From an uncultured Candidatus Binatia bacterium (GTDB lineage Bacteria > Desulfobacterota > Binatia > HRBIN30 > CADEER01): 60,438 nucleotides of DNA. The position numbers and the translations under genes were made by a program. The DNA lies in NCBI GenBank assembly GCA_964475125.1, contig CAYYWP010000004.1, forward strand, positions 1-60,438. The letters are read 5' to 3'. The stretch's first letter is position 1; each line of letters starts with the position of its first letter. The notes under the pieces are model-generated. The model saw only the letters and a program-made list of their open reading frames with translations, had not been told where the DNA came from and made no database searches. Shown here in pieces: positions 2,492 through 60,340 of this stretch.

Positions 2492-2516
2492 CCGAGAGGC
2501 ATTCGGAATCCCAGAC

Positions 2517-3374: not shown

Positions 3375-3485
3375 GGCCAGCGGACCGCGCCGCCCCTCCG
3401 CGGCCGCCCATTTGGTGCGAGGTCATCCGTCAACACCGGCGACCCGCACGAGCCGGCACGCGCCTGGAACCAGTGCCGGCCGCGA

Positions 3486-43531: not shown

Positions 43532-44563
43532 GTGTCGTTCGCGCTGCGCTGTGTCACCGCCGCCGAGGAACAGGCGTGGAACGACCGCCAGCTCGCCACA
43601 CCGGTCACTGCCCCGCGCCTGGCGTTCTGGACGTATCGCGACACGGCCGTCGTGGTCGGACGGTCGCAGCGCCACGGTGCGGGCACCGACTGTCCCGCCG
43701 CGTTCCGCTCGCCCTTCGACGGGCTCAGGGCGAGCGGAACGCTCGACGGCGGATGTCCCTTTCCGCTCGCGCTGAGCCCAGCCAAGCATGAGCGCGCGCT
43801 GCTTCCACCGCCTGCTAGCCCTTTCCTGCTCACGCTGAGCCCCCCCAAGCATGAGGGCGCGCTCCTTGCACCGCCCGCTAGCCCTTTCCCGCTCATGCTG
43901 AGCCCGTCGCAGCATGAGCGCGCGCTCTTTCCACCGCCTGCGAGTCCTTTCCCGCTCATGCTGAGCCTGTCGAAGCATGAGCGCGCGCTTTCTCGGACGC
44001 CTGCTCGGGTGCCGATCGTTCACCGCCGTTCCGGCGGTGGCGCGGTGCTGGTCGGGCCCGAGGTGCTCGGCGTGTCCGTGCTGCTACCGCTGGAACACCC
44101 GTTCGCCGTCTCGGGACTCGTGTCTTCTTATGAATGGTTCGGATGCGCGCACGCGCGCGCCTTGCGGCGCCTGGGAGTGCTATGTGAGGCCGTCAGCCCC
44201 AAGGCACTGCCCCGCGCCGCCGCCGACCCGATTGCGGCCTGGGCTTGCTTCGGTGCGGTATCGCCGTGGGAAGTCGTGACACTCACCGGTCGCCGCAAGC
44301 TCGTCGGCCTGGCCCAGCGGCGCACGCGCACCGGCGTGCTGCTCGTCAGCGGCACTTTGATCGAGGACCAGCGATGGGACGTCCTCTGCGATGCCCTCGG
44401 CCAGTCGGTCGAAGCCGCCGCCATCCTGCGGGGATCGACATCGTCATGCCGCCGCGAGCTCGGGAAGTCGATCGCCGTCGCCGACGTCGCCCGACGGGTT
44501 GCCCGCGAGCTCGACGTCGCACTGCGCTTCGAGATGCCACCCGGCGCGCAGGGCGAGCCGTAG
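43532..44563 (+). CDS. Lipoate-protein ligase family protein (BPL/LplA/LipB catalytic domain) carrying an approx 100-aa in-frame repeat-derived insertion
   Basis: GTG start. Landmarks VVVGRSQ, HRRSGGGAVLVG and GRRKLVGLAQRR (catalytic Lys context). Residues between the first two landmarks are encoded by the repeats at 43702..44007. The stop codon lies inside the 56-bp repeat 44555..44610. Confidence 0.7.
   Translation: MSFALRCVTAAEEQAWNDRQLATPVTAPRLAFWTYRDTAVVVGRSQRHGAGTDCPAAFRSPFDGLRASGTLDGGCPFPLALSPAKHERALLPPPASPFLLTLSPPKHEGALLAPPASPFPLMLSPSQHERALFPPPASPFPLMLSLSKHERALSRTPARVPIVHRRSGGGAVLVGPEVLGVSVLLPLEHPFAVSGLVSSYEWFGCAHARALRRLGVLCEAVSPKALPRAAADPIAAWACFGAVSPWEVVTLTGRRKLVGLAQRRTRTGVLLVSGTLIEDQRWDVLCDALGQSVEAAAILRGSTSSCRRELGKSIAVADVARRVARELDVALRFEMPPGAQGEP
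43702..43740. repeat. REP-like hairpin, family A, inside a coding sequence
   Basis: gttccgctcgccct-tcgacgggctc-agggcgagcggaac: perfect 14-bp stem, 11-nt loop identical to the loop at 27458..27468. Confidence 0.85.
43756..44007. repeat. Tandem array of four 63-nt family-A-related hairpin units inside a coding sequence
   Basis: Units start near 43756, 43819, 43882 and 43945. Units 3 and 4 keep perfect stems (cgctcatgctg..cagcatgagcg). Units 1 and 2 are decayed. The period of 63 nt equals 21 codons. Confidence 0.9.
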
Positions 44564-44610
44564 CCGTGGAACCCGTGCCCGCCGGCAGCGCCGCGCGCTG
44601 CCCGGTGGGG
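44555..44610. repeat. 56-bp GC-rich palindromic element, family E, copy 1
   Basis: gagccgtagccgtggaacccgtgcccgccggcagcgccgcgcgctgcccggtgggg is 53/56 identical to 56951..57006. It contains the stem ccggcagcgc/gcgctgcccgg. Both copies lie at gene 3' ends. Confidence 0.85.
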
Positions 44611-44669
44611 TAATCACTCGCCAGAAAAATCCCCTTGTTCCTTATGCTCGGGCTGGCAGGCTAGAGGGA

Positions 44670-47600
44670 ATGACGGACGGGCGTAGTGAAATGAGACGGG
44701 TGTCGGGCGGGAGAATTGGTTTGCTCGCGGCGTTGGCCGCGCTCGGGCTGGCGGCGTGCGGTGGCGGCGGTGGAAAGAGCCCGACACCGGGCGCACCGGT
44801 GCTGGATCCGATCGAAGATCAGCAGATCGAGCCGACCCGCTCGCTCGTCCTGGCGCTGACGGCCACCGACGCCGAGGGCGATCGCCTCGTCTATTCCAGC
44901 ACGGCGCTGCCCGCCAATGCCGCGCTCGTCCCGTCGACCGGCTTGTTCGTCTTCACCCCCGATGCGAGCCAGGCCGGCACGAGTCAGACCATCACCTTCA
45001 CCGTCAGCGACGGCGAGCAGGAGGACCACGAGCGCGTCCGCATCCGCGTCACTCGCTCCGTGCCGCCCACCAATCTCAGTCCCGATCTGGCGCCGATCGG
45101 CGACCACACGGTGCGCGCCGGTTCGACGCTGACCCTGCAGCAGAGCGCTACCGACCCGGAAAACGATCGGATCACCTTCAGCGTCCACCCGGCGCTGCCG
45201 CCCAATGCGACCTACGACAGCCACACGGGCCGCTTCACGTTTGCCCCGTCGGCGGCTCAGAAAGGGACGTACCCGTTCAGCTTCGTCGCCAGCGACGGCA
45301 ACAGCGCCGATTACGAAACCGTGCACATCGCCGTCACCGACGGCGACACGCCGTGCGCGGTGAGCACGCCGGCCGGGTGCGCGCCGCTGCCGACCGCCAC
45401 GCCGAGCACGCCAGCGCCCCCGTCCGCCACCCCGGCGACGCCGCCCAATCTCGTCATCACCAACCAGTGCTACACAGTTTCGTCCGGCAGCTACACGTAC
45501 AACTACGTCAACGTCGCCGAGGGTGGCCAGCTCATCTTCCTCGACGACGGCGGCACCATCGACTTCCGCGTCAGCTCGATGCTGGTGGAGCAGGGCGGCT
45601 CGGTACAGGCCGGCTCGCTCGAGTGCCCCTTCGGCTCGGCCGACGGCAAGCTGAAGATCGGCCTCTGGGGTACCGATCCGACCCAACAAGGAACGGTATT
45701 GAGCCCTACGCCGGCGGGGATCACCTGCGTCGGGACGACGATGAACCCGGGCGAGTGCTTCGATCCGGCGCTGACCGAATCGCCGCACTACTGCATGGAA
45801 CCCGATCCATCCGGGACGTGGAGCCCGAGTGACCCGTGCAACGTCACCCTGCCGAGCGATCAGCAGCAGGCCAACGGCAATGCCCTCTTCGAAGGCTACG
45901 ACGCCCTGAACTTCGACTACGGCGAGAACTACTTCGGCTACAAGGTGTTCGCCGTCAGCTATGGCGGCAGCGTGCAGTTCTTCGGTCGCAAGGGCGTCGC
46001 CGACGCGGACCTGTCGCCGACGCCGCCGACCACCTGCGACACGCCGGAGAATCAGTACGACGTCAACCAGTGGGCGGCGCTCAGCGGCTCGAGCTGGGCG
46101 CGCCTCGACCAGACGGTCAGCGCCGGCCAGACGATGGTGACGCTCGACCGCCCGGTCGATTGGGAAGAGGGCGATCAGGTCGTCGTGGCGACGACGGACT
46201 GGTACCCGAGTCACTCCGAGCTGATGGAGGTCCAGTCGGCGTCCACCACCGGCGGGCAGACGACCCTGACGCTCGACGGGCAGTTCTCATACGCTCATAA
46301 CGGGCAGACCTATGCCGTGCCGGAGACGCTGCGCACCAACGCGGGCAACCCCAACACCGAGGTCGAGCTGCGCGCCCCCGTCGGCCTGCTGACGCGCAGC
46401 ATCGTCATCTACTCGCTCGGCGAGACTCCCGACCAGCCGTTCCCGAGCCCGCCGTCGGGAAACGAGCAGCCGAGCCAGGAGTGGCTCAACTGCAGCTACG
46501 CCAACAACGGCGCGACACCATCGCCCGCTGCAACACCGTCGGCGACACCATCGGCGACGTCGTCGCCGACGGTGGCGCCCCATCCCGAGTGCTACTTCGG
46601 CGGTCACGTCATCGTGCGCCAGGGGTTTGGCACCTTCCAGGCACAAGGCGTCGAATTCCGCCAGCTCGGCCAGGGCGGCCGCATGGGGCACTATCCCATG
46701 CACTTCCACCTGGCGAAGTCGACCGACTACACCGATGCCTTCCTCAAGGACAGCTCGATCTGGGATTCGATGAACCGCTTCGTGGTCCTGCACGCCTCCC
46801 ACGGCATCACCGTGGCGCGCAACGTCGGCTTCCTCTCGATCGGCCATGCCTACTACCTCGAGGACGGCTCGGAGATCGAGAACCTGCTCTGTCACAACCT
46901 CGCCGTCTCCGTGCGCGGCGCGCTGAACGAGTTCTTCGCGGCCCAGCCGGTGCAGGATCCCTCGTACCGATTCGTGCCGCCGATCCTCGACGCCACCGAA
47001 GAAGAGGCGGGTGGGACATGTGCGTTCGGCGGCGACACGCTCCTTCCCACCGCGTTCTGGACCATGAACACCTGGAACGAGCTGGTCGGCAACGCCGCAT
47101 CCGGCGTGTACGGCTTCGGCTCCTGTTACTGGCTGCTGGGCTCGGGGGTGAGCGGACCGAGCAACAGCCCAGATTTCACCTGGTCGAAGAACACCGACTC
47201 GCCGGCCGACTACGCCGACTTCAACCTCGCCGGCACCCAGCAGGCTCCCCTCAAACGCTTTCGCGGCAACTCGTGCAGCAGCGCCGGCTACGGTCTGCAG
47301 AGCACGCTCCAAATCGAGCCGGTGGGCAACACGCCGCTGCTCACCGGCTTCACGCCCTCCACCAATCCTTACCTCACCAACAATCCGACGCAGTTCGACC
47401 GGCCGATGGTCACCGGCAACTATCTGCCGGTGAAATATGGCACCAACCCGAGCTGTGCGAGCGGCTATCCGGAGGAGAGCCAGTTCGCCTCCAACCCCGA
47501 CTACTGCGTCACCACGGTGATCGACCGCTTCACCACCTCGTTCAATCGCGCCGGCGCCAACTTCGCCGCGGTGTGGCTACGGCCGGAGTGGTTCGTGTTC

Positions 47601-50102
47601 ATGAACGGTGCGGTGACCGACCAGCTTGCCGGCGGCCTCACTTTCGTCACCGGTGGGAGCTGGACGCAGACCCCGCCCGGGTATTTCGCCATCACCAAGA
47701 ACAGCGTCTTCGTCGGCTCCACGCAGCCCGACAATCCTGACGCGGCGCCGATCGGCCCGGCCGTGTGCCCGAGCCCGACGCCGTCGACGACCTGCGCGCA
47801 AGCCTGCAGCGGCGGGGTCTGCCCGTTACCGGCCGATGGCATCGGCCTGTTCACCGGCGGCCTCAATCCGAAGCGCATGATCAGCATCTACGACGGGCCG
47901 TTCTACGCCGACGGCACGGTGTTCACCGACACGTCGCCGTTGACGTGCAACACGACGGGGCCGGCGCCGTACAACGACCCGAACGGTTGCCAGATCTACT
48001 CCTCGACTACTCAGCCGGAATACCAGAATCCGAACCCGACTCCGGGCGCGACCCCGCAGCCGCAGATGAACGTCGTCAATGCGGCGGTGGGCTGGAAGCA
48101 GCCGAACGGCTTCTATTATCCCCCGGCATTCGCCTTCCGGAAGTCCGCCTTCGATACCGCCACCTTCCGCCACAACGTCATCGATCAGTACGCCAACTAC
48201 TTGCAGGGGTCGCTGGCGGCTCCCGACTGCACGACGACGCCTTCCGGATGCCCGGCGCGCTTCGTGCCGCTCGGCGAGACGTACCCGGGCATCACGCCGA
48301 TCGACTTCTCCACCATCCTCAACGACATGGACGGCAGCTTGACCGGCTGGGTGCCGCAGGGCGGCACGCGCACTTCCTCGGTGAGCAAGAACGTCTTCTT
48401 CGACGCCCCCTCGCAGGATGCCGAGTGCCAGTCGTTCGGCGTGCAGACCGCGCCCTACGAGTTCGTGTCTTCGGTGATCGCCCCGCTCGGCGGTACGAGC
48501 CCGAATCAATACGTCGACCCCACGGTGTGGGGGATCGCCAACCTCCCCGCGGTGCCGATCTACCGCCAGCTCGCCCTGCCGGATGACCAGTGCCTGGGCG
48601 ACCAATCGGTGTGCTGCGCCCCCGGCCAGCAGGACTGCCCGGTCGGCACCGTCGGCTGTACGCGCGCCAGCTTCATGCTCGGCGGCCAGAACGGCCAGGC
48701 GCCGTACCTCACCTCGAACAACGGCGTCTACTACATCGACACCAACAAGCAGGAGGACAACCCGAGCTGCTTCATGCAGGCGCAGGTGTTCGAGCCCGGC
48801 TTCGCGGCCGATCAGTCGTACGTGCTCTACAACCTGTTCGCCAACGAGAACACCAAGGTCACCTATCAGCTTTACGTCGGCGACGGCTTCCAAGCCTCGG
48901 CCGGCCAGTGGGTGTTGGTGCAGCCGCATGTCTTCAGCACCTCCTCCGGACAGGGCGGCAATGCCACGGTGGTCACGCCCATCACCGATGCGCCGACGCT
49001 CGCCACCCTGAACGCCGGCGTGAGCGTGAGCAACGGCATCCTGCAGGTGGTCCTCAATCACTCCGCCATCGCCGACGACTATCTGTTCTCCAGCCGTCCG
49101 GACTACGACGTCTGCCTGCCGCGCGATATCTGTCAGATCGACACCAGCTCGCCGACACCGACCTCCTGCACCATCCAGGCGCAACCCAGCTTCCTCGACG
49201 GCAACGCTACCGACTACGCCGACTATCAGGCCGCCGTGACCGACATCTGCGAATACTGGGCGACTGCGACCGCCGGCCGCACCTCGCTGCCCAACACGCC
49301 GGGCGACGATGCCGACGATCCGATCTTCGCCGACTGTCCCACCGGCGGCTGCCTCGGTTACGCCTTCACCCTGCCGTCGAGCTTCACGCCCATGCCGTAT
49401 GCGGCCGTCGCGCCGACGCCCGGCTGCTTTGAGGCAGGCACCTGGAACATCTCGATGAGCTCGATCGACCCGGACTGCCCGACGCCGGCGCCTCCCGATC
49501 CCAGCGCGTTTTGCTCCGGCGGCACGCCGACGCCGACGCCAGGGACGCCCGGCGCGACGCCGACGGCTACGGCGACGAACGGCCAATTGGCTACCGCAAC
49601 TGCGACCGGTACCGGACCTGCCGCCACCGAAACGCCGACCGTTCCGCCAACCACGGCGGCCGCGACCGCGACGGCAACTCCCGGGATCGCGACGCCGACT
49701 CCCACCGGGTCGCTTCCGGAAGCAACCCCTACTCCGACACCACTCACGACTCCGACCGGCTCGCTCGTCTGGGTCTTGAACGGCAGCACCACCACGGCGA
49801 CGCTCACCGGGATATCGACCAGCGGCACGACCTATACGCAGGGGCAGCTCGCGCTGCAGGACGCGCAACAGCGCTTCTGCACCGCGACCGGAACGTTCCC
49901 GGTCCTCCAGGTCGTCGTCTCCTCGACCGACCTGCAAACGATCGGCCTATTCCCGGTCACCAGCATGGAGACCGTCGGCATCAGCGCGCTTCCCGCCGTG
50001 TCGGCCGGCACCTACGACGTGCAGATCCAGACCTTCCCCGGCTGCGACAGCACCAAACCGCCCATCTTCATCACTATGCCCAGCGCGATCATGTACGAGT
50101 GA
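44670..50102 (+). CDS. Giant lipoprotein (approx 1810 aa): two He_PIG-type Ig-like domains, a G8 domain, a CEMIP/TMEM2-like parallel beta-helix core, a long Cys-rich region, a Thr/Pro linker and an unknown C-terminal domain
   Basis: - Start: ATG 44670 or 44691 gives the signal LLAALAALGLAAC (lipobox). The 44391 start in the track is an Arg/Ser-rich artefact that overlaps the previous gene.
- Ig-like repeats: about 44796..45054 and 45087..45342 (TATDAEGDRLVYSSTALPANA... / SATDPENDRITFSVHPALPPNA...).
- G8-like region: about 45444..45675 (VNVAEGGQLIFLDDGGTIDFRVSSMLVEQGGSVQAGS...KLKIGLWG).
- Core block: GRMGHYPMHFHL...SIWDSMNRFVVLHASHGITVARNVGFLSIGHAYYLEDGSEIEN (about 46680..46880). It parallels the LGRYPIHFHL...GHCFFTEDGPEE block I recall from CEMIP. 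Confidence 0.8.
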   Translation: MTDGRSEMRRVSGGRIGLLAALAALGLAACGGGGGKSPTPGAPVLDPIEDQQIEPTRSLVLALTATDAEGDRLVYSSTALPANAALVPSTGLFVFTPDASQAGTSQTITFTVSDGEQEDHERVRIRVTRSVPPTNLSPDLAPIGDHTVRAGSTLTLQQSATDPENDRITFSVHPALPPNATYDSHTGRFTFAPSAAQKGTYPFSFVASDGNSADYETVHIAVTDGDTPCAVSTPAGCAPLPTATPSTPAPPSATPATPPNLVITNQCYTVSSGSYTYNYVNVAEGGQLIFLDDGGTIDFRVSSMLVEQGGSVQAGSLECPFGSADGKLKIGLWGTDPTQQGTVLSPTPAGITCVGTTMNPGECFDPALTESPHYCMEPDPSGTWSPSDPCNVTLPSDQQQANGNALFEGYDALNFDYGENYFGYKVFAVSYGGSVQFFGRKGVADADLSPTPPTTCDTPENQYDVNQWAALSGSSWARLDQTVSAGQTMVTLDRPVDWEEGDQVVVATTDWYPSHSELMEVQSASTTGGQTTLTLDGQFSYAHNGQTYAVPETLRTNAGNPNTEVELRAPVGLLTRSIVIYSLGETPDQPFPSPPSGNEQPSQEWLNCSYANNGATPSPAATPSATPSATSSPTVAPHPECYFGGHVIVRQGFGTFQAQGVEFRQLGQGGRMGHYPMHFHLAKSTDYTDAFLKDSSIWDSMNRFVVLHASHGITVARNVGFLSIGHAYYLEDGSEIENLLCHNLAVSVRGALNEFFAAQPVQDPSYRFVPPILDATEEEAGGTCAFGGDTLLPTAFWTMNTWNELVGNAASGVYGFGSCYWLLGSGVSGPSNSPDFTWSKNTDSPADYADFNLAGTQQAPLKRFRGNSCSSAGYGLQSTLQIEPVGNTPLLTGFTPSTNPYLTNNPTQFDRPMVTGNYLPVKYGTNPSCASGYPEESQFASNPDYCVTTVIDRFTTSFNRAGANFAAVWLRPEWFVFMNGAVTDQLAGGLTFVTGGSWTQTPPGYFAITKNSVFVGSTQPDNPDAAPIGPAVCPSPTPSTTCAQACSGGVCPLPADGIGLFTGGLNPKRMISIYDGPFYADGTVFTDTSPLTCNTTGPAPYNDPNGCQIYSSTTQPEYQNPNPTPGATPQPQMNVVNAAVGWKQPNGFYYPPAFAFRKSAFDTATFRHNVIDQYANYLQGSLAAPDCTTTPSGCPARFVPLGETYPGITPIDFSTILNDMDGSLTGWVPQGGTRTSSVSKNVFFDAPSQDAECQSFGVQTAPYEFVSSVIAPLGGTSPNQYVDPTVWGIANLPAVPIYRQLALPDDQCLGDQSVCCAPGQQDCPVGTVGCTRASFMLGGQNGQAPYLTSNNGVYYIDTNKQEDNPSCFMQAQVFEPGFAADQSYVLYNLFANENTKVTYQLYVGDGFQASAGQWVLVQPHVFSTSSGQGGNATVVTPITDAPTLATLNAGVSVSNGILQVVLNHSAIADDYLFSSRPDYDVCLPRDICQIDTSSPTPTSCTIQAQPSFLDGNATDYADYQAAVTDICEYWATATAGRTSLPNTPGDDADDPIFADCPTGGCLGYAFTLPSSFTPMPYAAVAPTPGCFEAGTWNISMSSIDPDCPTPAPPDPSAFCSGGTPTPTPGTPGATPTATATNGQLATATATGTGPAATETPTVPPTTAAATATATPGIATPTPTGSLPEATPTPTPLTTPTGSLVWVLNGSTTTATLTGISTSGTTYTQGQLALQDAQQRFCTATGTFPVLQVVVSSTDLQTIGLFPVTSMETVGISALPAVSAGTYDVQIQTFPGCDSTKPPIFITMPSAIMYE

Positions 50103-50282: not shown

Positions 50283-51444
50283 GGGGACGTAGGGCCGGGG
50301 AGGCCGGGTGTGACGGACTCACCGTGGATCGGATCTGCGCAGCCAGTGCGTGCAGCGAGTGCGAAGTGAAGGGTCCTCGGCTATCCGTAACGGATGCCGC
50401 GGGGTCCGCGTCTCGATTTCAGTGGCGCCCTCCATCACGTCATCGTCCGCGGTATCGAGCGCGGGCGCATCTTCCGTGACGGTCGCGACCGCGCCGAGTG
50501 TCGCGAGCGGCTGGGCCGGGCGCTTCGTGACGGCGGCGCGGCGCTGTACGCTTGGTGCTTCATGCCCAACCATGCCCATGCGTTGGTGCGCACGGGGGCG
50601 GTTCCCCTCTCGCGGGTGATCCAGCGCTGGCTCGGTCACTACGCGGTGCGCTTCAATCTCCGCCATCGACGCGCCGGTCATCTGTTCCAGAATCGCTTTA
50701 AGAGCACCCTGGTCGAGGAGGAGCGGTATTTTCTCGAGCTGGTGCGCTACATCCACCTCAATCCTGTCCGCGGGCAACGGCCGCTTGTCACGCTCGACGG
50801 GCTGGACAACTACCGCTGGAGCGGGCACGCAGTCTTGCTCGGTCGCCAGAGTTTCGCGGCGCAAGACACGGACTTCGTCCTGCGGCAGTTTGCTGCCCGT
50901 GCCGGACCAGCGCGCAGTGGCTACCGCGCCTTCGTGCGCGCCGGAAACGGTCGGCACGCGGCGCTTGACCTGGACGGCGGCGGGCTGCGGCGCAGCGCCG
51001 GCGGTTGGTGGATGGTGCGCGTGCTGGCACGCGGCCGTGAGCGTTGGGCGCACGACGAACGGGTGCTCGGCGACGGCGAGTTCGTCAATCGCGTCGTGCG
51101 CGAATCGATCAGTGCCTTCGCCCCGCCAGCGGCGAATCCGGCAGAGCTCGTGACCAACCTGTGCGGCCGATTCGCCTCGCGGTTCGCCCTCACCCCGGCG
51201 GAGGTGGCTCGGCCGAGCCTGCGCGCCCCCGTGCTCGATGCACGTGCACTCGTGAGCGAGGCGGCCGTGCGCGAGCACGGTCTGCCCCTGACCACAGTCG
51301 GACGGCAGCTTGGCGTGTCCAAGCAGAGCATCGCTCGCGCCCTTCTGCGCGCTGCCAGGCTGCGCCACGGGCGATGACAGACCGCGGAGGCATACGCGGG
51401 TTGGCGCTCTATCCTCACCCCGGCCGACCCGGCCCTACGTCCCC
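50283..51444. mobile_element. RAYT-type unit: HUH transposase gene bracketed by 17-18-bp perfect inverted repeats
   Basis: ggggacgtagggccgggg (50283..50300) is the exact reverse complement of (c)cccggccctacgtcccc (51428..51444). Confidence 0.7.
50394..51377 (+). CDS. IS200/IS605-type Y1 HUH transposase, REP-associated (RAYT-like), with a C-terminal DnaA-domain-IV-like HTH
   Basis: MPRGPRLDFSGALHHVIVRGIERGRIF. HUH motif HAH at 50571..50579 (FMPNHAHALV). Catalytic Tyr context LVRYIHLNPV. C-terminal LPLTTVGRQLGVSKQSIARALLRA. Confidence 0.85.
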   Translation: MPRGPRLDFSGALHHVIVRGIERGRIFRDGRDRAECRERLGRALRDGGAALYAWCFMPNHAHALVRTGAVPLSRVIQRWLGHYAVRFNLRHRRAGHLFQNRFKSTLVEEERYFLELVRYIHLNPVRGQRPLVTLDGLDNYRWSGHAVLLGRQSFAAQDTDFVLRQFAARAGPARSGYRAFVRAGNGRHAALDLDGGGLRRSAGGWWMVRVLARGRERWAHDERVLGDGEFVNRVVRESISAFAPPAANPAELVTNLCGRFASRFALTPAEVARPSLRAPVLDARALVSEAAVREHGLPLTTVGRQLGVSKQSIARALLRAARLRHGR

Positions 51445-51762: not shown

Positions 51763-52233
51763 GTGAAGATTACCGTGACGGTAAACGGCGAGCGCCACGA
51801 GGACGACGTGCCGCCGCGCTTGTTGCTCGTCCACTGGCTGCGCGAGCAGCTGGCGCTGACCGGCACGCACATCGGCTGCGAGACGACGGTGTGCGGGGCT
51901 TGCACGGTGCACCTCGACGGCCGAGCGGTGAAGAGCTGCACGATGTTCGCGGTGCAGGCCGACGGCCGCGCCGTGACGACCATCGAAGGCCTCGGCGGCG
52001 ACGAGCTCCACCCGCTGCAGATGGGCTTCTGGGAGAAGCACGGCCTGCAGTGCGGCTACTGCACGCCGGGCATGATCATGACCGCCGCCCAGCTCCTGCA
52101 GGACGATCCGGATCCGAGCGAGGAGGCGATCCGCGCCGCGATCGAGGGCAACATCTGTCGCTGTACGGGCTACCAGCAGATCGTCGACGCGGTCCAATAC
52201 GGCGCCGCGCTGGCACGGGAGAAGCGCTCATGA
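51763..52233 (+). CDS. (2Fe-2S)-binding small subunit of a Mo-hydroxylase (CoxS-like)
   Basis: GTG start after AAGGAGGAG. Cys clusters [11 protein letters not shown] and [10 protein letters not shown]...[10 protein letters not shown]. Confidence 0.9.
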
Positions 52234-54578
52234 CCGCCAGACCTTCGCTGATCGGCGCCCCGATCAAACGGCGCGAGGATCCGCGCTTGATCCGCGGCCT
52301 CGCCACCTACACCGACGACCTCAAGCTGCCGCGCATGGTGCACGCCGCCTTCGTGCACAGCCAGCACGCCGCCGGCCGCATCCGCCGCGTCGACACTGCG
52401 CGCGCCCGCGCCCGCCGCGGCGTGCTCGCCGTCTACACCATCGACGACATCCGCGGCCACGTCGGCCCCACGCCACTGCTCGTCCCCCTCCCCGAGGATC
52501 GCAAGGTCGAGCACCCGCTGCTCGCCGATGGCTTCGTGCGCTACGTCGGCCAGCCGATCGCGGTGGTCATCGCCGAGGACCGCTACCTGGCGCGCGACGC
52601 CGCCGCCGAGGTGGAGGTGGACATCGATCCCGCCCCAGCCGTGGTCGACGTCGAAGCCGCTCTCGCCCCCAACGCCCCGCGCGTCTACGCCGAGCTGCCG
52701 GACAACGTCTGCTCGCGCCTGGGGGCCGAGAACCCGATGGCGGATCAGCTGTTCGCCGCCGCGGCGGGCACGGTCAAGCTCCGCCTGGTCAATCAGCGCG
52801 TCGCGCCGGTGTCGATGGAGCCGCGCGCCGTGCTGGCGCAGTGGGACGAGGGTCAGCAGAAGCTGACCATGTGGACGTCCAACCAGGCGCCGCATGGCGT
52901 CAAGCAGAACGTCGCCGTGTGCCTGGGGATTCCCGAGATGCGCGTCCGCATCATCGCCCCCGAGGTCGGCGGCGCCTTCGGGTGCAAGATTCCCACCTAC
53001 CCGGAGGAGTGCCTGCTGCCGTGGATCGCGCGCAAGCTGCGGCGGCCGGTCAAGTGGGCCGAGACGCGCACCGAGAACCTGCAGAACACCACCCACGGCC
53101 GCGGCCACGTCGAGTACATCGAGGCGTCCTACACCGCGAGCGGTGAGGTGACGGCGCTGAAGATGAAGACCATCGCCGAGATCGGCGGCTATCCGTCGAT
53201 GATCGGGCCCGCGATCGCCGGCTTCACGCTGCTCTTGGTGCCGGGCTGCTACCGCCTGCAGGCGGTGTCGTTCGAGATCATCAACGTCTACACCAACACC
53301 ATGGCCACCGAGGCCTACCGCGGCGCCGGCCGGCCGGAGGCCGCCTATATCATCGAGCGCGTGATGGATGAGGTGGCGGTGGCGCTCAAGCTCGATCCGG
53401 TCGAGGTGCGGCGGCGAAACTTCATCCCCCCCGATGCGTTCCCGCACGCCACCATCACCGGCGCGGTGTACGACAGCGGCAACTACCAGGCCGCGCTCGA
53501 CCGCGCCCTGACGCTGTTCGACTACGACCAGGCGCGGCGCGACCAGGCCGAGGCGCGCCGCGCCGGGCGCCTGGTCGGCATCGGCGTCGCCTCCTTCACC
53601 GAGATCTGCGGCATCGGACCGAGCACCGGCGCCTCGGATATCGAGCGGCGCGGCTTCTGGGAGAGCGCCGAGATCCGCGTCGAGCCGACCGGCAACGCCA
53701 CCGTGATGACCGGCACCTCGCCGCACGGCCAGGGTCAGGAGACGGTCTTCGCGCAGATGACCGCCGACGCCCTCGGCATCGACATCGACGACGTGGTGGT
53801 GGTGCATGGGGATACCGACATGGTCACGCACGGCGTCGGCACCTTCGGCAGCCGCGGCCTCAACGTCGGCGGCACGGCGGTGCAGATGGCGCTCGACAAG
53901 ATCATCGCCAAGGGCAAGCGCATTGCCGGGCACCTGCTCGAGGTCCACGACCGCGACATCGAGTTCAAGGACGGCGTCTTTTCCGCCGTCGGCGGCGGGC
54001 CGCAGATCGGTTTCCGCAAGGTGGCACTGGCGGCGCACGTGTGGAACCGGCCGATGGCCGGCGAGGAGCCGGGCCTGGAGGCGTTGGCGCGCTTCGAGCC
54101 GACCGCCACGACCTTCCCGTTCGGCACGCATCTGTGCGAGGTCGAGGTCGACCGCAAGACCGGCGAGCTGACCATCCGCCGCTACGTCGCCGTGGACGAC
54201 TGCGGCACCGTCATCAACCCCCTGCTGGTCGACGGCCAGCGCCTGGGCGGCATCGTCCAGGGCCTCGGGCAAGCGCTGTGTGAAGAGGTGCGCTACGACG
54301 AGGCCGGGCAGCTGCTCTCCGGCACGCTCGCCGAGTACGCCGTGCCGCGCGCGCCGATGTTCCCGCGCATGGTGCTCGACCGCACCTGTACGCCGACCAA
54401 GGTCAACCCGCTCGGCGCCAAGGGCATCGGCGAGCTCGGCACCATCGGTGCCACCCCCTGCCTGGTGAACGCCGTGATCGATGCGCTGCGTCCGCTCGGC
54501 GTCACCCACCTCGACATGCCGCTCAAGCCCGAGCGCCTGTGGCGCGCCATGCGCGATGCCGAAGGGAGGCGGTCATGA
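52230..54578 (+). CDS. Molybdopterin-binding large subunit, form-II CoxL-like
   Basis: ATGA overlap at 52230. [23 protein letters not shown] opening. The active-site loop is [11 protein letters not shown] (form-II AYRGAGR, not form-I AYxCSFR). Confidence 0.9.
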
Positions 54579-55432
54579 TTCCGGCCGAGTTCAACTACCA
54601 GGTGCCGCGCTCGCTCGACGAGGCGCTGCGCCTGCTCACCGCCTCGGAGGCCAAGATCGTCGCCGGCGGCATGAGCCTCATCCCGGCGATGAAGCTGCGC
54701 CTGGTGGCGCCGCCCGCCCTGATCGACATCGCGCGCGTCGCCGAGCTGGGCGGTGTGCGGCGCGACGGCGGCGCCGTGCGCGTCGGCGCCTGTGTCACCC
54801 ACGATCAGCTCATGCGCAGCGCCGAGCTCGGCGGCGCGCACGTGGTCGCCGAGGCGGCGGGCGCCATCGGCGACCTGCAGGTGCGCAACCGCGGCACGAT
54901 CGGCGGCAGCCTCGTGCACGCCGACCCGGCCGCCGACTGGCCGGCGGTGTTCCTCGCCCTCGACGGTGAAGCTGTGCTGCGCGGTCCGCGCGGCGAGCGC
55001 CGCCTGCCGGCGGCCAAGTTCTTCACCGGCCTGCTGCAGAGCGCGACGGCCGCCGACGAGATCCTCACCGAGGTTCGACTCGCCATGCCCGCCGGGCGCA
55101 GCGGGACGGCCTACGCCAAGATGCGACATCCGGCCTCGGGCTTCGCCGTCGTCGGCGCCGCTGCCGTGCTCACCCTCGACGCCAAGGGCCGCTGCGAGCG
55201 CGCCGCCATCGGCGTGACCGGCGTCAACGCCAGCGCGTTCCGCGCTCACAGCGTCGAGAAGGCGCTGCAGGGAACGGGGCTCGACGCCGCCGCGGTCGAG
55301 AAGGCCTGCGCCACCATCGCCGAGTGCGACGCCCTCGGCGATGCCTTCGCCTCGGCCGAGTACCGCCGCCATCTCGCCGGCGTGTACATCGGCCGCGCCG
55401 TCGCGCGCGCCAAGGAGCGAGTGAAGAATTAG
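54575..55432 (+). CDS. FAD-binding medium subunit (CoxM-like)
   Basis: ATGA overlap at 54575. [18 protein letters not shown]...IVAGGMSLIPAMKLR is the PCMH-type FAD-binding pattern. Confidence 0.9.
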   Translation: MIPAEFNYQVPRSLDEALRLLTASEAKIVAGGMSLIPAMKLRLVAPPALIDIARVAELGGVRRDGGAVRVGACVTHDQLMRSAELGGAHVVAEAAGAIGDLQVRNRGTIGGSLVHADPAADWPAVFLALDGEAVLRGPRGERRLPAAKFFTGLLQSATAADEILTEVRLAMPAGRSGTAYAKMRHPASGFAVVGAAAVLTLDAKGRCERAAIGVTGVNASAFRAHSVEKALQGTGLDAAAVEKACATIAECDALGDAFASAEYRRHLAGVYIGRAVARAKERVKN

Positions 55433-55452
55433 CCCTCGTTCGAAATGCCTTG

Positions 55453-55603
55453 AAACCACGAAGGCCACGAAGAGGACGAATGGCAAGGGTTGCTGGGCCG
55501 TGCGAGGCAGGGCGAGAGGCTCACAGCTATGAGAATGATCCATGCGTCGCTGCCCTGCGCCGTGATCTTCGCCGGCTTCGTGTTCTTCGTGGTGAAAGGT
55601 TTT
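55453..55603. repeat. Inverted-repeat element, family F (CCACGAAG.ACACGAAG arms)
   Basis: Arms aaaccacgaaggccacgaagaggacgaa (55453..55480) and cttcgtgttcttcgtggtgaaaggttt (55576..55603) are imperfect reverse complements. There is an inner gcagggc/gccctgc stem. Confidence 0.65.
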
Positions 55604-55623
55604 TTCGGATTGGGGCTCGTTAG

Positions 55624-55702
55624 CCACGGATGAGCACCGATGGACACAGCGCCTCGTCGCCAGACTCTGTGTTCATCCGTGGTCATTGGTGTTCATCTGT
55701 GG
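55624..55702. repeat. Family D hairpin plus an extra half-site
   Basis: ccacggatgagcac (55624..55637) pairs with gtgttcatccgtgg (55669..55682). A third half-site gtgttcatctgtgg lies at 55689..55702 and is identical to the arm of the 39138..39276 element. Confidence 0.8.
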
Positions 55703-55731
55703 TTTCTCAACCAACTGCGTGAGGAGGAACC

Positions 55732-56928
55732 ATGGCGCCGAAGAAAACCATCTACACCGCTCCGAGTCTCAAGTGGACCGATTCGCTGCCCACCGGCAGC
55801 GCCTGCGTGCGCGTCGGCGACCTGCTCTGCATCAGCGGCCAGGTCAGCCTCGATGCCAAGTTCCGCGCCGTCGCCGCGGGCGACGTCAAGGCGCAGGCGC
55901 GCAACATCTTCAGCCAGATCCAGGCCGCCGTCGAAGCGGCCGGCGGATCGCTGGACGACGTCCTCGACCTGCTCTCGTTTCACAAGGACTGCCGCCAGCT
56001 CATGGACGTGGTGGAGGTCGCCAGGGAGTTCTTCAAGAAGGACTATCCGGCGTGGACGGCGATCGGCACCACGGGCACCTATGACCCCGACCTGCTGGTG
56101 AGCATCAAGGCGATCGCGCACCTCGGCAAGGAAAAGAAGCAGTGCTACACCCCGGACTCCGTCAAGTGGTTCCGCAGCCTGCCGCTGTCGGCCGCCTGCC
56201 GCAAGGGCAACCTGATGTTCCTCTCCGGCCAGGTGTCGGTCGATCCGGACGGCAACATGGTGGCGCCCGGCAATCACGCGCTGCAGGCGCGACAAGCGTG
56301 GGTGAACATCAAGTCCGTCATCGAGGCCGCCGGCGGCACGCTCGATGACGTCATCGAAACCCTGTCGTTCCACGTCGACCCGCGCGGCATGGAGATCGCC
56401 GGCGACCTGGTCCTGGCGGAGGTCTGGGGCCAGACCCCGCTGGCAAACGCGGCCTCGTGGACGGCGATCGGCACGCCGGCGCTGTATGCCCTGGGGATCA
56501 TGGGCGAGTACCGCACGATGGTCGATTTCAGCCCCGGCAAGCGCATCGCCCACACACCCGACACGATCTGGTGGCGTGTCATCCCCGTCTCCGGCGGCAG
56601 CAAGAAAGAGGGCGGCACCCTGATCGCCGTCTCCGGCCAGGTCTCCTCGGACGGCGACGGCAACATCCTGCACGCCGGCGACGTCGCCGGGCAGGCGCGC
56701 TACGACTTCAAGCAGATCCGCAGGATCCTGGCCGGCTTCAACGCCACGCTCGATAACATCGTCGAGATCACCTCCTTCCACAAAGACATCCGTGCCTGGG
56801 AGACCGTGATGAAGGTCGGCGCCGAGCACTTCCGCAAGGGCGAGGCGCCGGCGTGGACGGCGGTCGGCATGTCGGGCATGTGGAAGGAAGGCTACCTGCA
56901 CGAGATCCACGCCCTCGCGGTGGTGTGA
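55732..56928 (+). CDS. Triple-domain RidA/YjgF/UK114-family protein (three tandem Rid domains in one chain)
   Basis: GAGGAGGAAC precedes ATG 55732. Three collinear approx 130-aa repeats each have the pattern [LI]xxSGQV...A[QG]xQA...I...AGG[ST]LD[DN][IV]...[ST]FH...[PS][AS]WTA[IV]G. Confidence 0.85.
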   Translation: MAPKKTIYTAPSLKWTDSLPTGSACVRVGDLLCISGQVSLDAKFRAVAAGDVKAQARNIFSQIQAAVEAAGGSLDDVLDLLSFHKDCRQLMDVVEVAREFFKKDYPAWTAIGTTGTYDPDLLVSIKAIAHLGKEKKQCYTPDSVKWFRSLPLSAACRKGNLMFLSGQVSVDPDGNMVAPGNHALQARQAWVNIKSVIEAAGGTLDDVIETLSFHVDPRGMEIAGDLVLAEVWGQTPLANAASWTAIGTPALYALGIMGEYRTMVDFSPGKRIAHTPDTIWWRVIPVSGGSKKEGGTLIAVSGQVSSDGDGNILHAGDVAGQARYDFKQIRRILAGFNATLDNIVEITSFHKDIRAWETVMKVGAEHFRKGEAPAWTAVGMSGMWKEGYLHEIHALAVV

Positions 56929-56950
56929 GCGGGGAACGAGCGACCGCGAC

Positions 56951-57006
56951 GAGCCGTAGCCGCGGGACCCGTGCCCGCCGGCAGCGCGGCGCGCTGCCCG
57001 GTGGGG
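56951..57006. repeat. 56-bp GC-rich palindromic element, family E, copy 2
   Basis: 53/56 identical to 44555..44610. Starts 23 nt after the stop of the RidA-triple gene. Confidence 0.85.
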
Positions 57007-57134
57007 CGGGGCCCGGCAACGGTGCGCCGGACGCAGGAGTCCAGCACCGGCGGTGATCCTCCGGCGACATTCCCCGCCAATCCCGGACGCACGCATCGCG
57101 CGGGCACAATACGGCGCGCCCCGCCTCTCCGCGC

Positions 57135-57427
57135 GGCGCACGCCGTGCGCCCCGACGCGGAATGGATGTGTGCCACGCGTGCCGACACGACTCGCGCCGT
57201 GGGTTCCGACGCACCGCGCGCCGCACGGGGCAATGTGGTGTGCCCGCCGCCCCCCCCCGCCGGGCGCACGCCGTGCGCCCCTACGCGGAATGGATGTGTA
57301 CCACGCGTGCCGATACGACTCGCGCCGCGTGGGCGCGTGCCGTGGGCCCTTCACGCGCCCACCGGATTGGGGCACGGCGTGGGTTCGGGGTGCTACCTGC
57401 ACCGTAGGGGCGCACGGCGTGCGCCCG
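57135..57427. repeat. Family G repeats (GGCGCACGCCGTGCGCCCC-ACGCGGAATGGATGTGT.CCACGCGTGCCGA.ACGACTCGCGCC): two direct approx 70-nt copies plus one inverted partial copy
   Basis: Copies at 57135..57203 and 57263..57333 (128-nt period, few mismatches). The inverted core ccgtaggggcgcacggcgtgcgcccg lies at 57402..57427. The core GCGCACGCCGTGCGC has 6-bp self-complementary arms (GCGCAC / GTGCGC) around a central GCC. Confidence 0.85.
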
Positions 57428-57580
57428 AGCGACCGCGCCCATGGCGCCCGACCGCGAGAATGACGTGGTAGTTCTGGCCGGTGTCGGCGATCGGCCAAAT
57501 GTTCGTTTGTGCCGCCTCCACGGCGCCGGGAAACCCGCAGAATCGGCATAGGGAGTGATGTACAAGCGCGGGTTAGGCAG

Positions 57581-58930
57581 CTAGCCCCGCCCGAGCCCGG
57601 CGCTGCGCTGCGCCCACACGGCGGTGAGGGCGATGGCGACGGCGACCAGGCCGATGCAGAGGCCGATCCACAGGCCGACCACGCCCCAGCCGGCGCTGAA
57701 ACAGAGCGCCGCGCCGATCGGCAGGCCGAACAACCAGTGCCCGCCGAGGTTGGCGAGAAACGCCGTGCGCGTGTCGCCGAGCCCGCGCAGCGCACCCGTG
57801 GCGACGACCTGGATGCCGTCGAAGAGCTGGAAGGCGGCGGCGACGGAGAGCAGCGTGACGCCGCTCGCCAGGACGGCGGGCACGTCGGTGAAGATCGCCA
57901 GGATGGCGCGCGGCGCGGTGAGAAACACCGTCGCCGAGATGCTCATCGCGGCGACGCCGAGCGCCAGCGCGGTCCAGCCGGCGCGCGCCGCCGCCGCGGG
58001 GTGACGGCGCCCGAGCGCGTGGCCCACCCGCACCGCGGCAGCCGACGAGATACCGAGCGGGATCATGAAGGTGAACGATGCCGCGCTGAGGGCGATCTGG
58101 TGGGCCGCCAGGGCGTCAGTGGTCAGCCGGCCGGCGAGCAGCGTCGCGGCGGTGAACACCCCGCTCTCGAGCAACAGGTGGAATGCCGCCGGCGTGCCGA
58201 GGCGGACGACCTCGATGAAGCGCGCGATCTCGAAGCGCAGCGGCAGCCGCCAACCGCGCCCGGCGCGCGCCTCGCAGCGCAGCACGTAGGCGAGGATGAC
58301 GACAAACATGTAGACCCGCGAGGCGCAGGTCGCCCACCCGGCGCCCTCCGCGCCGAGCGCCGGAAGCCCGAAGGAGCCGAAGATCAGCACCCAGGCGACG
58401 GCGGCGTTGATGACGTTGGCGCTCACCAGGGTCACCATGATGATACGCACGTGGCCGAGGGCCTGGGCGTAACGCCGCAGGGTCGCATAGAGCAGCAGCG
58501 GCAAGAGGCTCCAGGTGACGGCGCGCAGGTACGGATGCGTCGCCTCGGCCACCGCCGGCTGAATGCCGAACCAGGTGAGGTGCGCATCGATGATGAGCAA
58601 GACGGGCGTGAGCAGCGCGGCCAGCGCGACGCTCAGATACGCACCGTGCACCAGGGCGCGGCGCGCATCCTCCAAGCGCCCGGCGCCGAAAGCGTGCGCC
58701 ACCAGGTAGTCGAGCCCGAGCAGCATGCCGATGCCGAACAGGCCGACGGTGAAGTACACGTGGCTGCCGATACTCACCGCGCCGATCGCCTCGGCGCCGA
58801 TGCGGCCGACCAGAATGGTGTCGACCAGCCCCATCGCCATCCAGCCGAGCTCGGCGAGCGCGACCGGCCAGGCCAGCGCGAACATCGCCGGCAGCTCGTT
58901 GCGCCAGGCGCGCAGGGTCTTGCTGGTCAT
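57581..58930 (-). CDS. MATE-family efflux transporter
   Basis: 449 codons. LRAWRNELPAMFALAWPVALAELGWMAMGLVDTILVGRIGAEAIGAVSIG is a typical MATE N-terminus. 12 predicted hydrophobic segments. Confidence 0.85.
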   Translation of the reverse strand: MTSKTLRAWRNELPAMFALAWPVALAELGWMAMGLVDTILVGRIGAEAIGAVSIGSHVYFTVGLFGIGMLLGLDYLVAHAFGAGRLEDARRALVHGAYLSVALAALLTPVLLIIDAHLTWFGIQPAVAEATHPYLRAVTWSLLPLLLYATLRRYAQALGHVRIIMVTLVSANVINAAVAWVLIFGSFGLPALGAEGAGWATCASRVYMFVVILAYVLRCEARAGRGWRLPLRFEIARFIEVVRLGTPAAFHLLLESGVFTAATLLAGRLTTDALAAHQIALSAASFTFMIPLGISSAAAVRVGHALGRRHPAAAARAGWTALALGVAAMSISATVFLTAPRAILAIFTDVPAVLASGVTLLSVAAAFQLFDGIQVVATGALRGLGDTRTAFLANLGGHWLFGLPIGAALCFSAGWGVVGLWIGLCIGLVAVAIALTAVWAQRSAGLGRG

Positions 58931-59020: not shown

Positions 59021-59189
59021 CGCTAGTGTCCTGAGTCCGAAATTCGCTGCATATCTCGGCGAGGCATCGGCGGCCCTGGCCAGGCGGCCGACGCAGGAAT
59101 ATCTGGCTATATTCCGAGGAGGCCAACGCCGCCAGGGGCGCTGAGGACCGCCGCGATATGCAGCGAATTTCGGACTCAGGACACTAGCG
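59021..59189. mobile_element. 169-bp MITE with perfect 35-bp terminal inverted repeats
   Basis: cgctagtgtcctgagtccgaaattcgctgcatatc (59021..59055) is the exact reverse complement of 59155..59189. CTAG sits at both ends. There is no coding capacity. The right arm contains the stop codon (59184..59186) of the EEP gene. Confidence 0.9.
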
Positions 59190-60221
59190 GCAGTTGAGAT
59201 CCATCTCGACGCCGGTGTGGTCCGACGGCCAGCAGATCGGCTGCGGTGCTGGTCCGCAGCTGGCGGCGAACGGGTTCGGCAGCTCGGCGAAGAGACGCGT
59301 CGCCGTACCGTCGCCGTCGCGGTCGGCGGCGGGATCGAGCCCGACGCGACAGGGAAAGCCCTCGCCCGCGGGAACGAGAAAGATGAAATCGATGCGTTGG
59401 GTCTCGCCGCTGGCCGGCGACTCCAGCTCTGCCAGCGAGGCGTCGTCGCGTCCCGACGTACAGCCGGTACCGGAGGTCGGATCGCACTCGGCGTTGCGTG
59501 CGGCGAGGTAGACATCGCGCCAGCCGCGCTCGGTGAAGAGCCGATGCACGAAGCCGCCCGGCGGGCTGTTGAAGTCGCCGCCGATCAGCGCCGGCGCCGG
59601 GCCCATGCGCGTCGCGTCGATGAAGTCCATCATCTCGAGGGCCTGGCAGTCGCGGCGGACTTGTGCCCCCCGTTCCGTGCAATGGGCCGGGCAGGGTGGG
59701 CTGCCGGCATCGCAGGGCAGCGGCCCGCCGTCGGAGCCCGAGGCGAGGTGCGTGGTGTAGACGTCGAGCGCACCGAGGGGGTGGTCGACGCGCACGTGCA
59801 GCACCTTGCGAAAACCGGGGAACAGCGCCTGGCGCTCGACGAGCAGCACCGGGTAGCGGCTCAGCACCGCTTCGTCGTCGACGCCGAGCCGCTGGCTGCC
59901 CAGCGCCACCTCGTAGGGGAACGGGCAGGCGGTGAGGGCGTGCGCCTCGAGCAGTGGCAGCCACTCCCGCCACACTTCTTGCAACGTCACCACATCGGGG
60001 CAGCCGCGTTCGGCGATCCATTGAAAGAGCAGCTCGGCGCGGTCGGCGAGGCGGCAGTTGTCCAGGGTCGCGCAAGCGCCGGTGATGCCGTGCAGCACGT
60101 TGAGCTGCGCCATGGTCAGGTCGCGTTCGCCCGCCGAGCCGTCACCGTCATCGCCGCAGCCGGCGAGCAGTGCCAGTCCCAGCGCCACGACAAGCCGTTG
60201 GATGCGAAACAGGCGTCCCAT
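59184..60221 (-). CDS. Endonuclease/exonuclease/phosphatase (EEP) family lipoprotein
   Basis: ATG 60221 gives MGRLFRIQRLVVALGLALLAGC (lipobox). EEP blocks LNVLHG, VVTLQEVW, IGGDFNSPPG and WPSDHTGV. Confidence 0.8.
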   Translation of the reverse strand: MGRLFRIQRLVVALGLALLAGCGDDGDGSAGERDLTMAQLNVLHGITGACATLDNCRLADRAELLFQWIAERGCPDVVTLQEVWREWLPLLEAHALTACPFPYEVALGSQRLGVDDEAVLSRYPVLLVERQALFPGFRKVLHVRVDHPLGALDVYTTHLASGSDGGPLPCDAGSPPCPAHCTERGAQVRRDCQALEMMDFIDATRMGPAPALIGGDFNSPPGGFVHRLFTERGWRDVYLAARNAECDPTSGTGCTSGRDDASLAELESPASGETQRIDFIFLVPAGEGFPCRVGLDPAADRDGDGTATRLFAELPNPFAASCGPAPQPICWPSDHTGVEMDLNCR

Positions 60222-60308
60222 GCTGGTGCCAACCTCACCGACCAGAGGCTGCAATTGCAAGCCTTGCTCGGGATCGGTTTCCGAGTCGGCACACTCTTTG
60301 GCCAAGCT

Positions 60309-60340
60309 CCGACACCTGGCCCCTGACACCCGACACCTGG
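60309..60340. promoter_or_regulatory. Direct repeats CCGACACCTGG x2 (21-nt spacing) with a central GACACC, upstream of the cysteine-synthase-like gene
   Basis: ccgacacctgg occurs at 60309..60319 and 60330..60340, with ctgacacc between them. Located 20 nt before ATG 60360. Confidence 0.3.

Follow-up and report, generated by a model that had tools for sequence, protein, structure and literature searches.

What can a Rid protein do once three of its domains are joined in one polypeptide and none of them carries the arginine of the RidA active site? The question is raised by a 398-residue protein encoded in a 60,438-nucleotide stretch of contig CAYYWP010000004.1 (GenBank assembly GCA_964475125.1, from an uncultured Candidatus Binatia bacterium), the whole of which we refer to as the window. 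Judged from a predicted structure, this is very probably a single-chain, pseudo-trimeric Rid protein with non-equivalent clefts. Its function is a more tentative matter: from residues that are missing or relocated and from mixed gene neighbourhoods, we consider it possible that the protein is no RidA deaminase and serves as a single-site accessory enzyme of nitrogen-compound catabolism. Taken whole, structure and function together, the favoured explanation seems to us about evenly poised between right and wrong. The gene and its domains, whose borders were set by a single-domain hidden Markov model (HMM), are the following.

55732-56928, plus strand: triple-Rid (3x-Rid) gene, 398 residues (the end includes the stop codon), an intact open reading frame (ORF) that translates without a stop
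55721-55727, plus strand: Shine-Dalgarno-like GAGGAGG, 4 bases 5' of the ATG, read directly from the sequence
55738-56124, plus strand: Rid domain 1, residues 3-131 (HMM envelope), with W108 (nucleotides 56053-56055), R88 and S124
56131-56529, plus strand: Rid domain 2, residues 134-266 (HMM envelope), with W243 (nucleotides 56458-56460), R218 and E259
56536-56925, plus strand: Rid domain 3, residues 269-398 (HMM envelope), with W375 (nucleotides 56854-56856), R354 and E391 (nucleotides 56902-56904)

The Pfam family PF01042 (Endoribonuclease L-PSP / Rid) matches three stretches of the protein (195.1 bits; gathering score 27.3), and in BLASTP the thirds of the protein resemble one another far above chance (35-44% identity, E = 7e-24 to 2e-29). 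The first-pass annotation, made from the letters alone, had proposed three collinear Rid domains in one chain with tryptophan in place of arginine in every repeat. Both proposals are borne out: the HMM borders fall within a few bases of those it gave, and alignment with Arg-bearing Rid proteins places P-A-W, A-S-W and P-A-W at the corresponding positions of the three repeats. It had also named stops or frameshifts as signs of a split gene, and the gene proves not to be split, since the ORF is intact and the independent contigs of four sand-filter/biofilter metagenomes that cover it differ by substitutions only; with zero indels among these contigs, there is no sign of a frameshift dividing the ORF into three genes.

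An AlphaFold2 model of the protein, built on an 81-sequence family alignment, forms one rigid body with a mean predicted local distance difference test score (pLDDT) of 95.8, no segment with pLDDT below 50 and a predicted template modelling score (pTM) of 0.94. Each third of the model follows the same beta-alpha-beta-alpha-beta-beta pattern, and because so high a pTM is reached in a three-domain chain, the placement of the domains relative to one another is confidently predicted. When the model was compared with solved structures by Foldseek, single Rid chains (RutC, PH0854, YabJ, UK114, YjgH and others) each covered one third of it, with template modelling (TM) scores of 0.85-0.92 per target and ~0.28 per query and a root-mean-square deviation of 1.5-3 Å, which assigns the chorismate-mutase-like Rid fold to every domain. 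The only whole-chain matches in the PDB were chorismatases, namely Hyg5 (5ag3, 5a3k) and FkbO (4bps), whose alignments to the model span 358-404 columns with TM scores of 0.63-0.67 per target and 0.53-0.58 per query, at a probability of 1.00. All three domains are thus aligned on one chorismatase chain, and this is evidence for a pseudo-threefold arrangement in the window protein. Chorismatases are monomers with pseudo-threefold symmetry, built of YjgF-like units. A PDB sequence search found no solved structure with three recognisable Rid sequence domains, and its matches with E < 0.05 were all of 165 residues or less.

The resemblance to chorismatases invites a different account of function, in which the pseudo-trimer has become a chorismatase-like lyase or hydrolase with one remodelled active site, which cleaves or rearranges a larger carboxylated cyclic substrate and is not a mere quencher of reactive intermediates. 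Besides being the only whole-chain structural matches, chorismatases of the FkbO/Hyg5/XanB2 type (4bps, 5ag3, 5a3k) share with the window protein a single chain that aligns with all three domains; a full conserved residue set is possible in just one of the three pockets, and ring- and amide-cleaving enzymes are found among the gene neighbours. Against this account, the sequence relation is negligible (14-17% identity in Foldseek, and a family-profile match to 5a3k of E = 0.076 over one stretch), chorismatases are ~60 residues shorter and occur in another genomic context, with no shikimate or secondary-metabolite genes at our loci, and there is no chorismatase family match in NCBIfam. TM scores of 0.53-0.67 speak for a like arrangement and not for the same enzyme. 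The protein is therefore not a member of the chorismatase sequence family and does share its pseudo-threefold arrangement; that it also shares a chorismatase-like chemistry we regard as unlikely.

To which Rid subfamily do the three domains belong? The Rid family has been split into RidA and Rid1-7, of which Rid4-7 lack Arg105; in Rid4 and Rid7 the usual replacement is tryptophan (Niehaus et al. 2015, PMC4433059). The arginine of PH0854 (2dyy) and of ST0811 (1x25), in the motif K-P-A-R, aligns with W108, W243 and W375, so all three domains lack the residue by which RidA is recognised; E. coli YjgH has a tryptophan at this position too. YjgH (1pf5), the Rid7 prototype, also leads the PDB sequence matches of domain 2 (2.3e-12), domain 3 (4.8e-12) and the family profile (1.4e-23) and comes second for domain 1, and it has the motifs SFHxD and WTA(V/I)G in common with the window protein. 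With tryptophan at the Arg105 position and YjgH as the nearest of the solved or characterised Rid proteins, the domains appear YjgH-like, that is Rid7-like, although the tryptophan would fit Rid4 as well. YjgH differs from the window protein in being a single 131-residue domain and in having no arginine at the Asn88 position, where it reads TDPE.

Automated annotation points elsewhere, to a canonical RidA-type enamine/imine deaminase that has simply been fused three times. The NCBIfam model TIGR00004 ('Rid family detoxifying hydrolase') is passed with 137 bits against a cutoff of 106.25, and because it is passed, as a sum over three domains, databases carry the names 'enamine deaminase RidA' and 'Rid family hydrolase'; moreover, 15 clusters of triple-Rid proteins have arginine in each of their domains. 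We nevertheless find this account improbable. The TIGR00004 score owes its size to the summing of three domains, the enamine/imine deaminase equivalog NF008490 is missed (67.9 bits, cutoff 222), and tryptophan stands at the Arg105 position in every domain, where an Arg105Ala substitution nearly abolishes RidA activity and where the only Rid7 protein assayed, STM1549 of S. enterica, showed no imine hydrolysis even at 100 µM (PMC4433059). From the replacement of Arg105 by tryptophan we infer that 2-iminoacid deamination of the RidA type is not its reaction, and, with the arginine absent and the assayed Rid7 protein inactive, the proposal of the first-pass annotation that it does not carry out canonical imine hydrolysis is plausible. 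The RutC equivalog TIGR03610, second-best of the NCBIfam matches, is likewise missed (126.3 bits, cutoff 169.1), and no rut genes lie nearby. RutC, the 3-aminoacrylate deaminase of the pyrimidine utilisation operon, has the Rid fold too, disposes of a reactive enamine as an accessory enzyme of nitrogen-heterocycle catabolism and is the top single-domain Foldseek match to our model; unlike the window protein it has a single domain, and it keeps the arginine.

Which pocket residues, then, has the family kept? We mapped the pocket of TdcF, formed by Tyr17, Gly31, Asn56, Asn88, Arg105, Pro114 and Glu120 (Burman et al. 2007, PMC1884159), onto the 81 aligned family members, using the domain alignment for all residues except Tyr17, which was placed by eye. 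In TdcF the side chain of Asn88 hydrogen-bonds Arg105 within the pocket, and Glu120 acts across the interface (PMC1884159). At the Arg105 position tryptophan is invariant in domains 1 and 3 (W108 and W375, each 81/81) and variable in domain 2, where residue 243 is tryptophan in 30, threonine in 23 and tyrosine in 15 of the 81. At the Glu120 position domain 1 has serine (S124) and domain 2 is variable (E259 in the window protein), while glutamate is invariant in domain 3 (E391, 81/81), the sole domain that keeps it across the family. The Asn88 position is occupied by arginine in all three domains, R218 and R354 being invariant and R88 present in at least 90% of the alignment; in a wider set of 134 proteins the arginine is found in 123, 133 and 132 for domains 1, 2 and 3, respectively. 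The Tyr17 position reads glycine, leucine and valine in domains 1, 2 and 3 and tyrosine in none, and the RidA pocket set of Tyr17, Asn88 and Glu120 is consequently not present as a set. Domain 3 is the most conserved of the three, with the top same-index score (154 bits).

These patterns agree with two further proposals of the first-pass annotation. It had suggested a covalent pseudo-trimer, which accords with the pTM of 0.94, the mean pLDDT of 95.8 and the alignment of chorismatases to the whole chain where single Rid proteins cover one third. It had also suggested that fusion would free the pockets to diverge, and the tryptophan is indeed fixed in the two outer domains, whereas domain 2 tolerates other residues, and the Glu120 equivalent is kept only in domain 3.

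A mechanism can be sketched on this basis. Three YjgH-like domains, derived from an ancient triplication, would pack like a Rid homotrimer, and as a result of this packing the three inter-domain clefts would be covalently fixed and no longer equivalent. The arginine at the Asn88 position probably still presents a guanidinium to the cleft, from a position beside that of Arg105 and stacked on the tryptophan, and small anionic ligands of the carboxylate type could still bind there. Because only one Glu120 equivalent is conserved, and because this residue acts across the interface, there is probably one cleft with the full complement of tryptophan, arginine and glutamate. We predict that the main active site lies between domains 3 and 1, where E391 would come together with W108 and R88 as the fully invariant set, and that the remaining clefts are degenerate or of changed specificity. 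By analogy with other accessory Rid proteins, the enzyme might speed the hydrolysis or tautomerisation of an unstable intermediate, for example an enamine or imine, in the breakdown of nitrogen compounds. Its partner in the pathway would be a form II CoxL-type molybdenum hydroxylase in the lineage of the window, and amidohydrolases, CocE/NonD-type hydrolases, short-chain dehydrogenases/reductases (SDRs) and 2-hydroxyacid dehydrogenases in other lineages. A precedent exists in the nicotine cluster of Agrobacterium S33, which holds an Arg-less Rid6 gene with a predicted role in enamine/imine removal (PMC7688666).

How old is the fusion, and how widespread? A search of 5.8 billion proteins (E <= 1e-5, clusters at 90% identity) returned at least 229 clusters, and the best 120 of them, nearly all 388-432 residues long, align over the greater part or the whole of the window protein with 46-89% identity. 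When a profile was run against 1.84 billion representatives, 216 proteins matched at E <= 1e-30, mostly of 380-420 residues with 2-3 matched stretches. Carriers belong to Binatia, Chloroflexota, Nitrospinota, Alphaproteobacteria, Actinomycetota (Amycolatopsis, Gaiella, Gordonia), Acidobacteriota and other groups. The species genomes of GTDB yielded 79 loci, some of them in isolates such as Amycolatopsis jejuensis (NRRL B-24427), Kibdelosporangium aridum (DSM 43828) and Marinibaculum pumilum (KCTC 42964); the locus of a further isolate, Rhodococcus rhodnii, is a partial match only, of ~100 residues.

Across 225 triple-domain proteins the residues at the three Arg105 positions read WWW in 57, WTW in 30, WYW in 22, RRR in 15 and SSS in 10, with many rarer patterns. 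Within the Trp-x-Trp family, domains 1, 2 and 3 score 129, 131 and 154 bits, respectively, against the same-index domains of the window protein and 74-84 bits off the diagonal, and this same-index orthology indicates that the triplication is older than the radiation of the family. No domain-by-domain correspondence with the window protein is seen in the RRR and SSS proteins, which for this reason probably stem from separate triplications. By their fit to the RidA description (arginine, with ~10% serine), the RRR and SSS proteins are presumably the '3x-RidA' fusions of Niehaus and colleagues. On sequence grounds, the window protein is an ordinary member of a large Trp-type lineage that is distinct from both.

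The first-pass annotation overstated the novelty of this protein, because 3x-RidA fusions, such as EF_0115 of Enterococcus faecalis V583, were described in 2015 as 'presumably covalently linked trimer units', in the same paper that reported the Arg-to-Trp change of the Rid4 and Rid7 subfamilies (Niehaus et al. 2015, BMC Genomics 16:382, PMC4433059). Like 3x-RidA, the window protein has three tandem Rid domains in one polypeptide of ~400 residues; unlike 3x-RidA, which belongs to the RidA subfamily, it has Trp/Trp/Trp at the Arg105 positions and YjgH-like domains, EF_0115 having been compared by its description only. Our literature searches for later studies of triple-Rid or pseudo-trimeric Rid proteins returned only the 2015 paper. 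Three points are fresh here: a triplication that is both ancient and independent, conservation that differs between the pockets, and the arginine at position 88.

Several other fused forms came to light in the same searches. A metagenomic protein of 803 residues (P0147) has six Rid domains in one chain and may be a covalent double trimer. Another metagenomic protein, P0250 (398 residues), is an Arg-Arg-Arg triple-Rid with an apparent N-terminal signal peptide, so that its Rid trimer would lie outside the cytoplasm. Two Trp-type 3x-Rid paralogues lie ~7 kb apart at loci L051 and L053-L057, which come from Terriglobia/Acidobacteriota and one betaproteobacterial metagenome-assembled genome (MAG); at L051, the locus examined in detail, amidohydrolase and MFS transporter genes are placed around and between the two.

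Do the neighbouring genes reveal the pathway? Upstream of the 3x-Rid gene the window encodes the three subunits of a molybdenum (Mo) hydroxylase.

51763-52233, plus strand: CoxS-like gene, Mo-hydroxylase small (2Fe-2S) subunit (glyceraldehyde dehydrogenase gamma, 231.8 bits, cutoff 290, NCBIfam)
52230-54578, plus strand: CoxL-like gene, Mo-hydroxylase large subunit (form II motif AYRGAGR in the translation)
54575-55432, plus strand: CoxM-like gene, Mo-hydroxylase FAD-binding subunit (260.9 bits, cutoff 350, NCBIfam)

Successive genes of this set overlap by 4 bases. All three subunits fall below every NCBIfam equivalog cutoff, and glyceraldehyde dehydrogenase is the best match; the CoxL-like protein scores 657.7 bits as its alpha subunit (cutoff 790) and 631 as the large subunit of CO dehydrogenase (cutoff 991). 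The order coxSLM-3xRid recurs in the closest relatives, with 9 nucleotides before the 3x-Rid gene in a Binatia MAG (L083) and 23 in L089. The CoxS-like orthologue in L083 carries Fer2 and Fer2_2, and the gene 5' of 3x-Rid in L089 is 88% identical to the CoxM-like gene of the window. Other genes near the L083 locus encode an amidase, a dienelactone hydrolase, an amidohydrolase, a second Mo-hydroxylase, an isochorismatase-family protein and a member of the PEP-mutase/ICL (phosphoenolpyruvate mutase/isocitrate lyase) family. The window itself has a second CoxL-like gene, at 107-2491, that is 38% identical to the one at 52230-54578.

We counted neighbours across 78 species-level loci by tblastn with Pfam-verified queries. 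A CoxL-like gene lies within 5 kb of 3x-Rid at only 4 of the 78, which rules out a family-wide Mo-hydroxylase link and confines it to the lineage of the window. The link, which the first-pass annotation had drawn from gene position, is accordingly weak: the closest relatives uphold it with their gaps of 9-23 nucleotides, whereas the family at large does not, and in the window itself the two are separated by 299 nucleotides that bear a repeat. The same-strand adjacent genes most often encode an S15 hydrolase of the CocE/NonD type (23 loci), followed by SDR (13), Amidohydro_1 (7), Amidohydro_2 (7), 2-Hacid_dh (2-hydroxyacid dehydrogenase; 5) and luciferase-like monooxygenase (3), and amidases, M24 peptidase/creatinase-like genes and hydantoinase A/B occur within 5 kb at other loci. 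What these neighbours share is oxidative and C-N-hydrolysing chemistry within catabolic clusters, a setting that would suit an accessory protein dealing with an unstable nitrogenous intermediate.

The same neighbourhoods bear on the idea that the protein is no metabolic enzyme at all and works as an endoribonuclease, a regulator, a binder of ligands or a chaperone. Rid7C of Nonomuraea, a member of Rid7, is reportedly an endoribonuclease. There are also reports of chaperone or RNase activity for other Rid proteins (PMC4433059). Same-strand siting beside catabolic enzymes and transporters in many phyla points instead to metabolism, and the invariant residues lie at small-molecule cleft positions; we think it improbable that the protein works outside metabolism.

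In the window, the gap between coxM and 3x-Rid holds a feature of its own.

55436-55643, unstranded: multicopy repeat element within the 299-nucleotide coxM/3x-Rid gap (from contig depth)

In 4/4 metagenomes the contig depth over this interval is ~5-18x that of the coxM bin just upstream, and the gap has a GC content of 57.5%, against 69% for the window. Where the relatives have 9-23 nucleotides, the interval looks like an inserted multicopy mobile repeat. A search of 55350-57650 for riboswitches and known RNAs gave one chance-level match only (E = 0.16), and a promoter scan of 55300-57700 found nothing; three terminator-like sites in the scanned interval are within chance.

Several points weigh against an accessory enzyme that works beside the Mo-hydroxylase with one main cleft. 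Because the 299-nucleotide gap holds a repeat element, co-transcription of coxM and 3x-Rid in the window is uncertain, and a search for RNA-seq runs that hold the gene, with its co-transcription with coxSLM in mind, listed none. The neighbourhoods are heterogeneous, 13 of the 78 loci having none of the neighbour types sought. The proximity of Arg88 to Trp105 and the choice of cleft are predictions drawn from the description of TdcF. Finally, since STM1549, the only assayed Rid7 protein, is without imine deaminase activity, an enamine/imine role is not assured (PMC4433059).

Repeats also lie on the other side of the gene.

56929-57580, unstranded: repeat-rich non-coding stretch 3' of the 3x-Rid gene (direct and inverted repeats, depth, L089 synteny)

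Depth rises to as much as 756x around 56892-56995. The downstream spacer has an 86-nucleotide direct repeat and three copies of the palindrome GGGCGCACGCCGTGCGCCC, at 57134, 57262 and 57408, where 0.03 are expected by chance, and a 57-nucleotide repeat copy at 44554-44610 is 95% identical to sequence of this spacer. The palindromic repeats may be repetitive extragenic palindromic (REP)-like elements. An ORF at 50394-51377 has an N-terminal match to a REP-associated tyrosine transposase model (58.7 bits, cutoff 80) and could be connected with the neighbouring palindromic repeats; 5' of it, an ORF at 44391-50102 (1903 residues) has linkers rich in threonine and proline and, at its N terminus, a probable membrane or secretion segment.

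A relative that is 83% identical offers a view of what may have been lost. L089 has, at 576-3756, coxM, 3x-Rid, a second 3x-Rid paralogue (67% identical) and a gene for a 217-residue protein, followed by MatE and an endonuclease/exonuclease/phosphatase (EEP) gene. The window keeps MatE (57581-58930, minus strand) and the EEP gene (59184-60329, minus strand) and is without the paralogue and the 217-residue gene, a comparison which suggests that these two were deleted in the window or replaced by the repeats. In the closest subclade, a ~200-residue protein that has no Pfam match and a conserved Cys-x-x-Tyr-His stretch is encoded directly 3' of 3x-Rid, with 56-81% identity between lineages, at the following positions.

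L087, 11240-11848: ~200-residue partner gene
L081, 11224-11835: ~200-residue partner gene
L002, 11224-11829: ~200-residue partner gene
L089, 3103-3756: ~200-residue partner gene

As a general partner of 3x-Rid this protein was rejected, since neither the window nor the majority of loci encode it.

Could the 3x-Rid gene be a decaying remnant in this genome, stranded between repeats and cut off from expression together with the cox operon? The order coxM-3xRid-3xRid-217aa-MatE in the syntenic relative, set against a window that lacks the second 3x-Rid and the 217-residue gene and in which repeats flank the remaining 3x-Rid on both sides, would be in keeping with decay. The gene itself argues otherwise: the ORF is intact, is 89% identical to its nearest relative, keeps every family-invariant residue and follows a strong ribosome-binding site, and the strain variants in the four metagenomes are substitutions only. 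We see very little chance that it is a remnant and retain the accessory enzyme as the favoured reading.

What the locus means for the family follows from its asymmetry. Few small proteins of unclear function are as widespread as the Rid proteins, and Rid4-7 have no assigned chemistry. Because a fused trimer breaks the threefold symmetry, evolution marks which pocket residues matter; the residues so marked are the invariant tryptophan and arginine pair in domains 1 and 3 and the one surviving glutamate, and the Trp-type family is a convenient entry for finding what Arg-less Rid pockets bind. The pipeline names 'RidA', 'enamine deaminase' and 'Rid family detoxifying hydrolase' are made doubtful by the absent arginine. 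A bolder reading, which we hold to be doubtful at present, is that the Trp-type triple-Rid proteins are no fused RidA but a distinct ancient enzyme family in which position 88, in place of position 105, supplies the pocket arginine and one complete cleft carries out an undescribed reaction on an intermediate of amide or N-heterocycle catabolism. If such a distinct one-cleft enzyme family does exist, it would provide the first biochemical function for the Arg-less Rid4-7 group, and it would be, after the chorismatases, the second instance in which a Rid trimer was reshaped into a monomeric, asymmetric enzyme.

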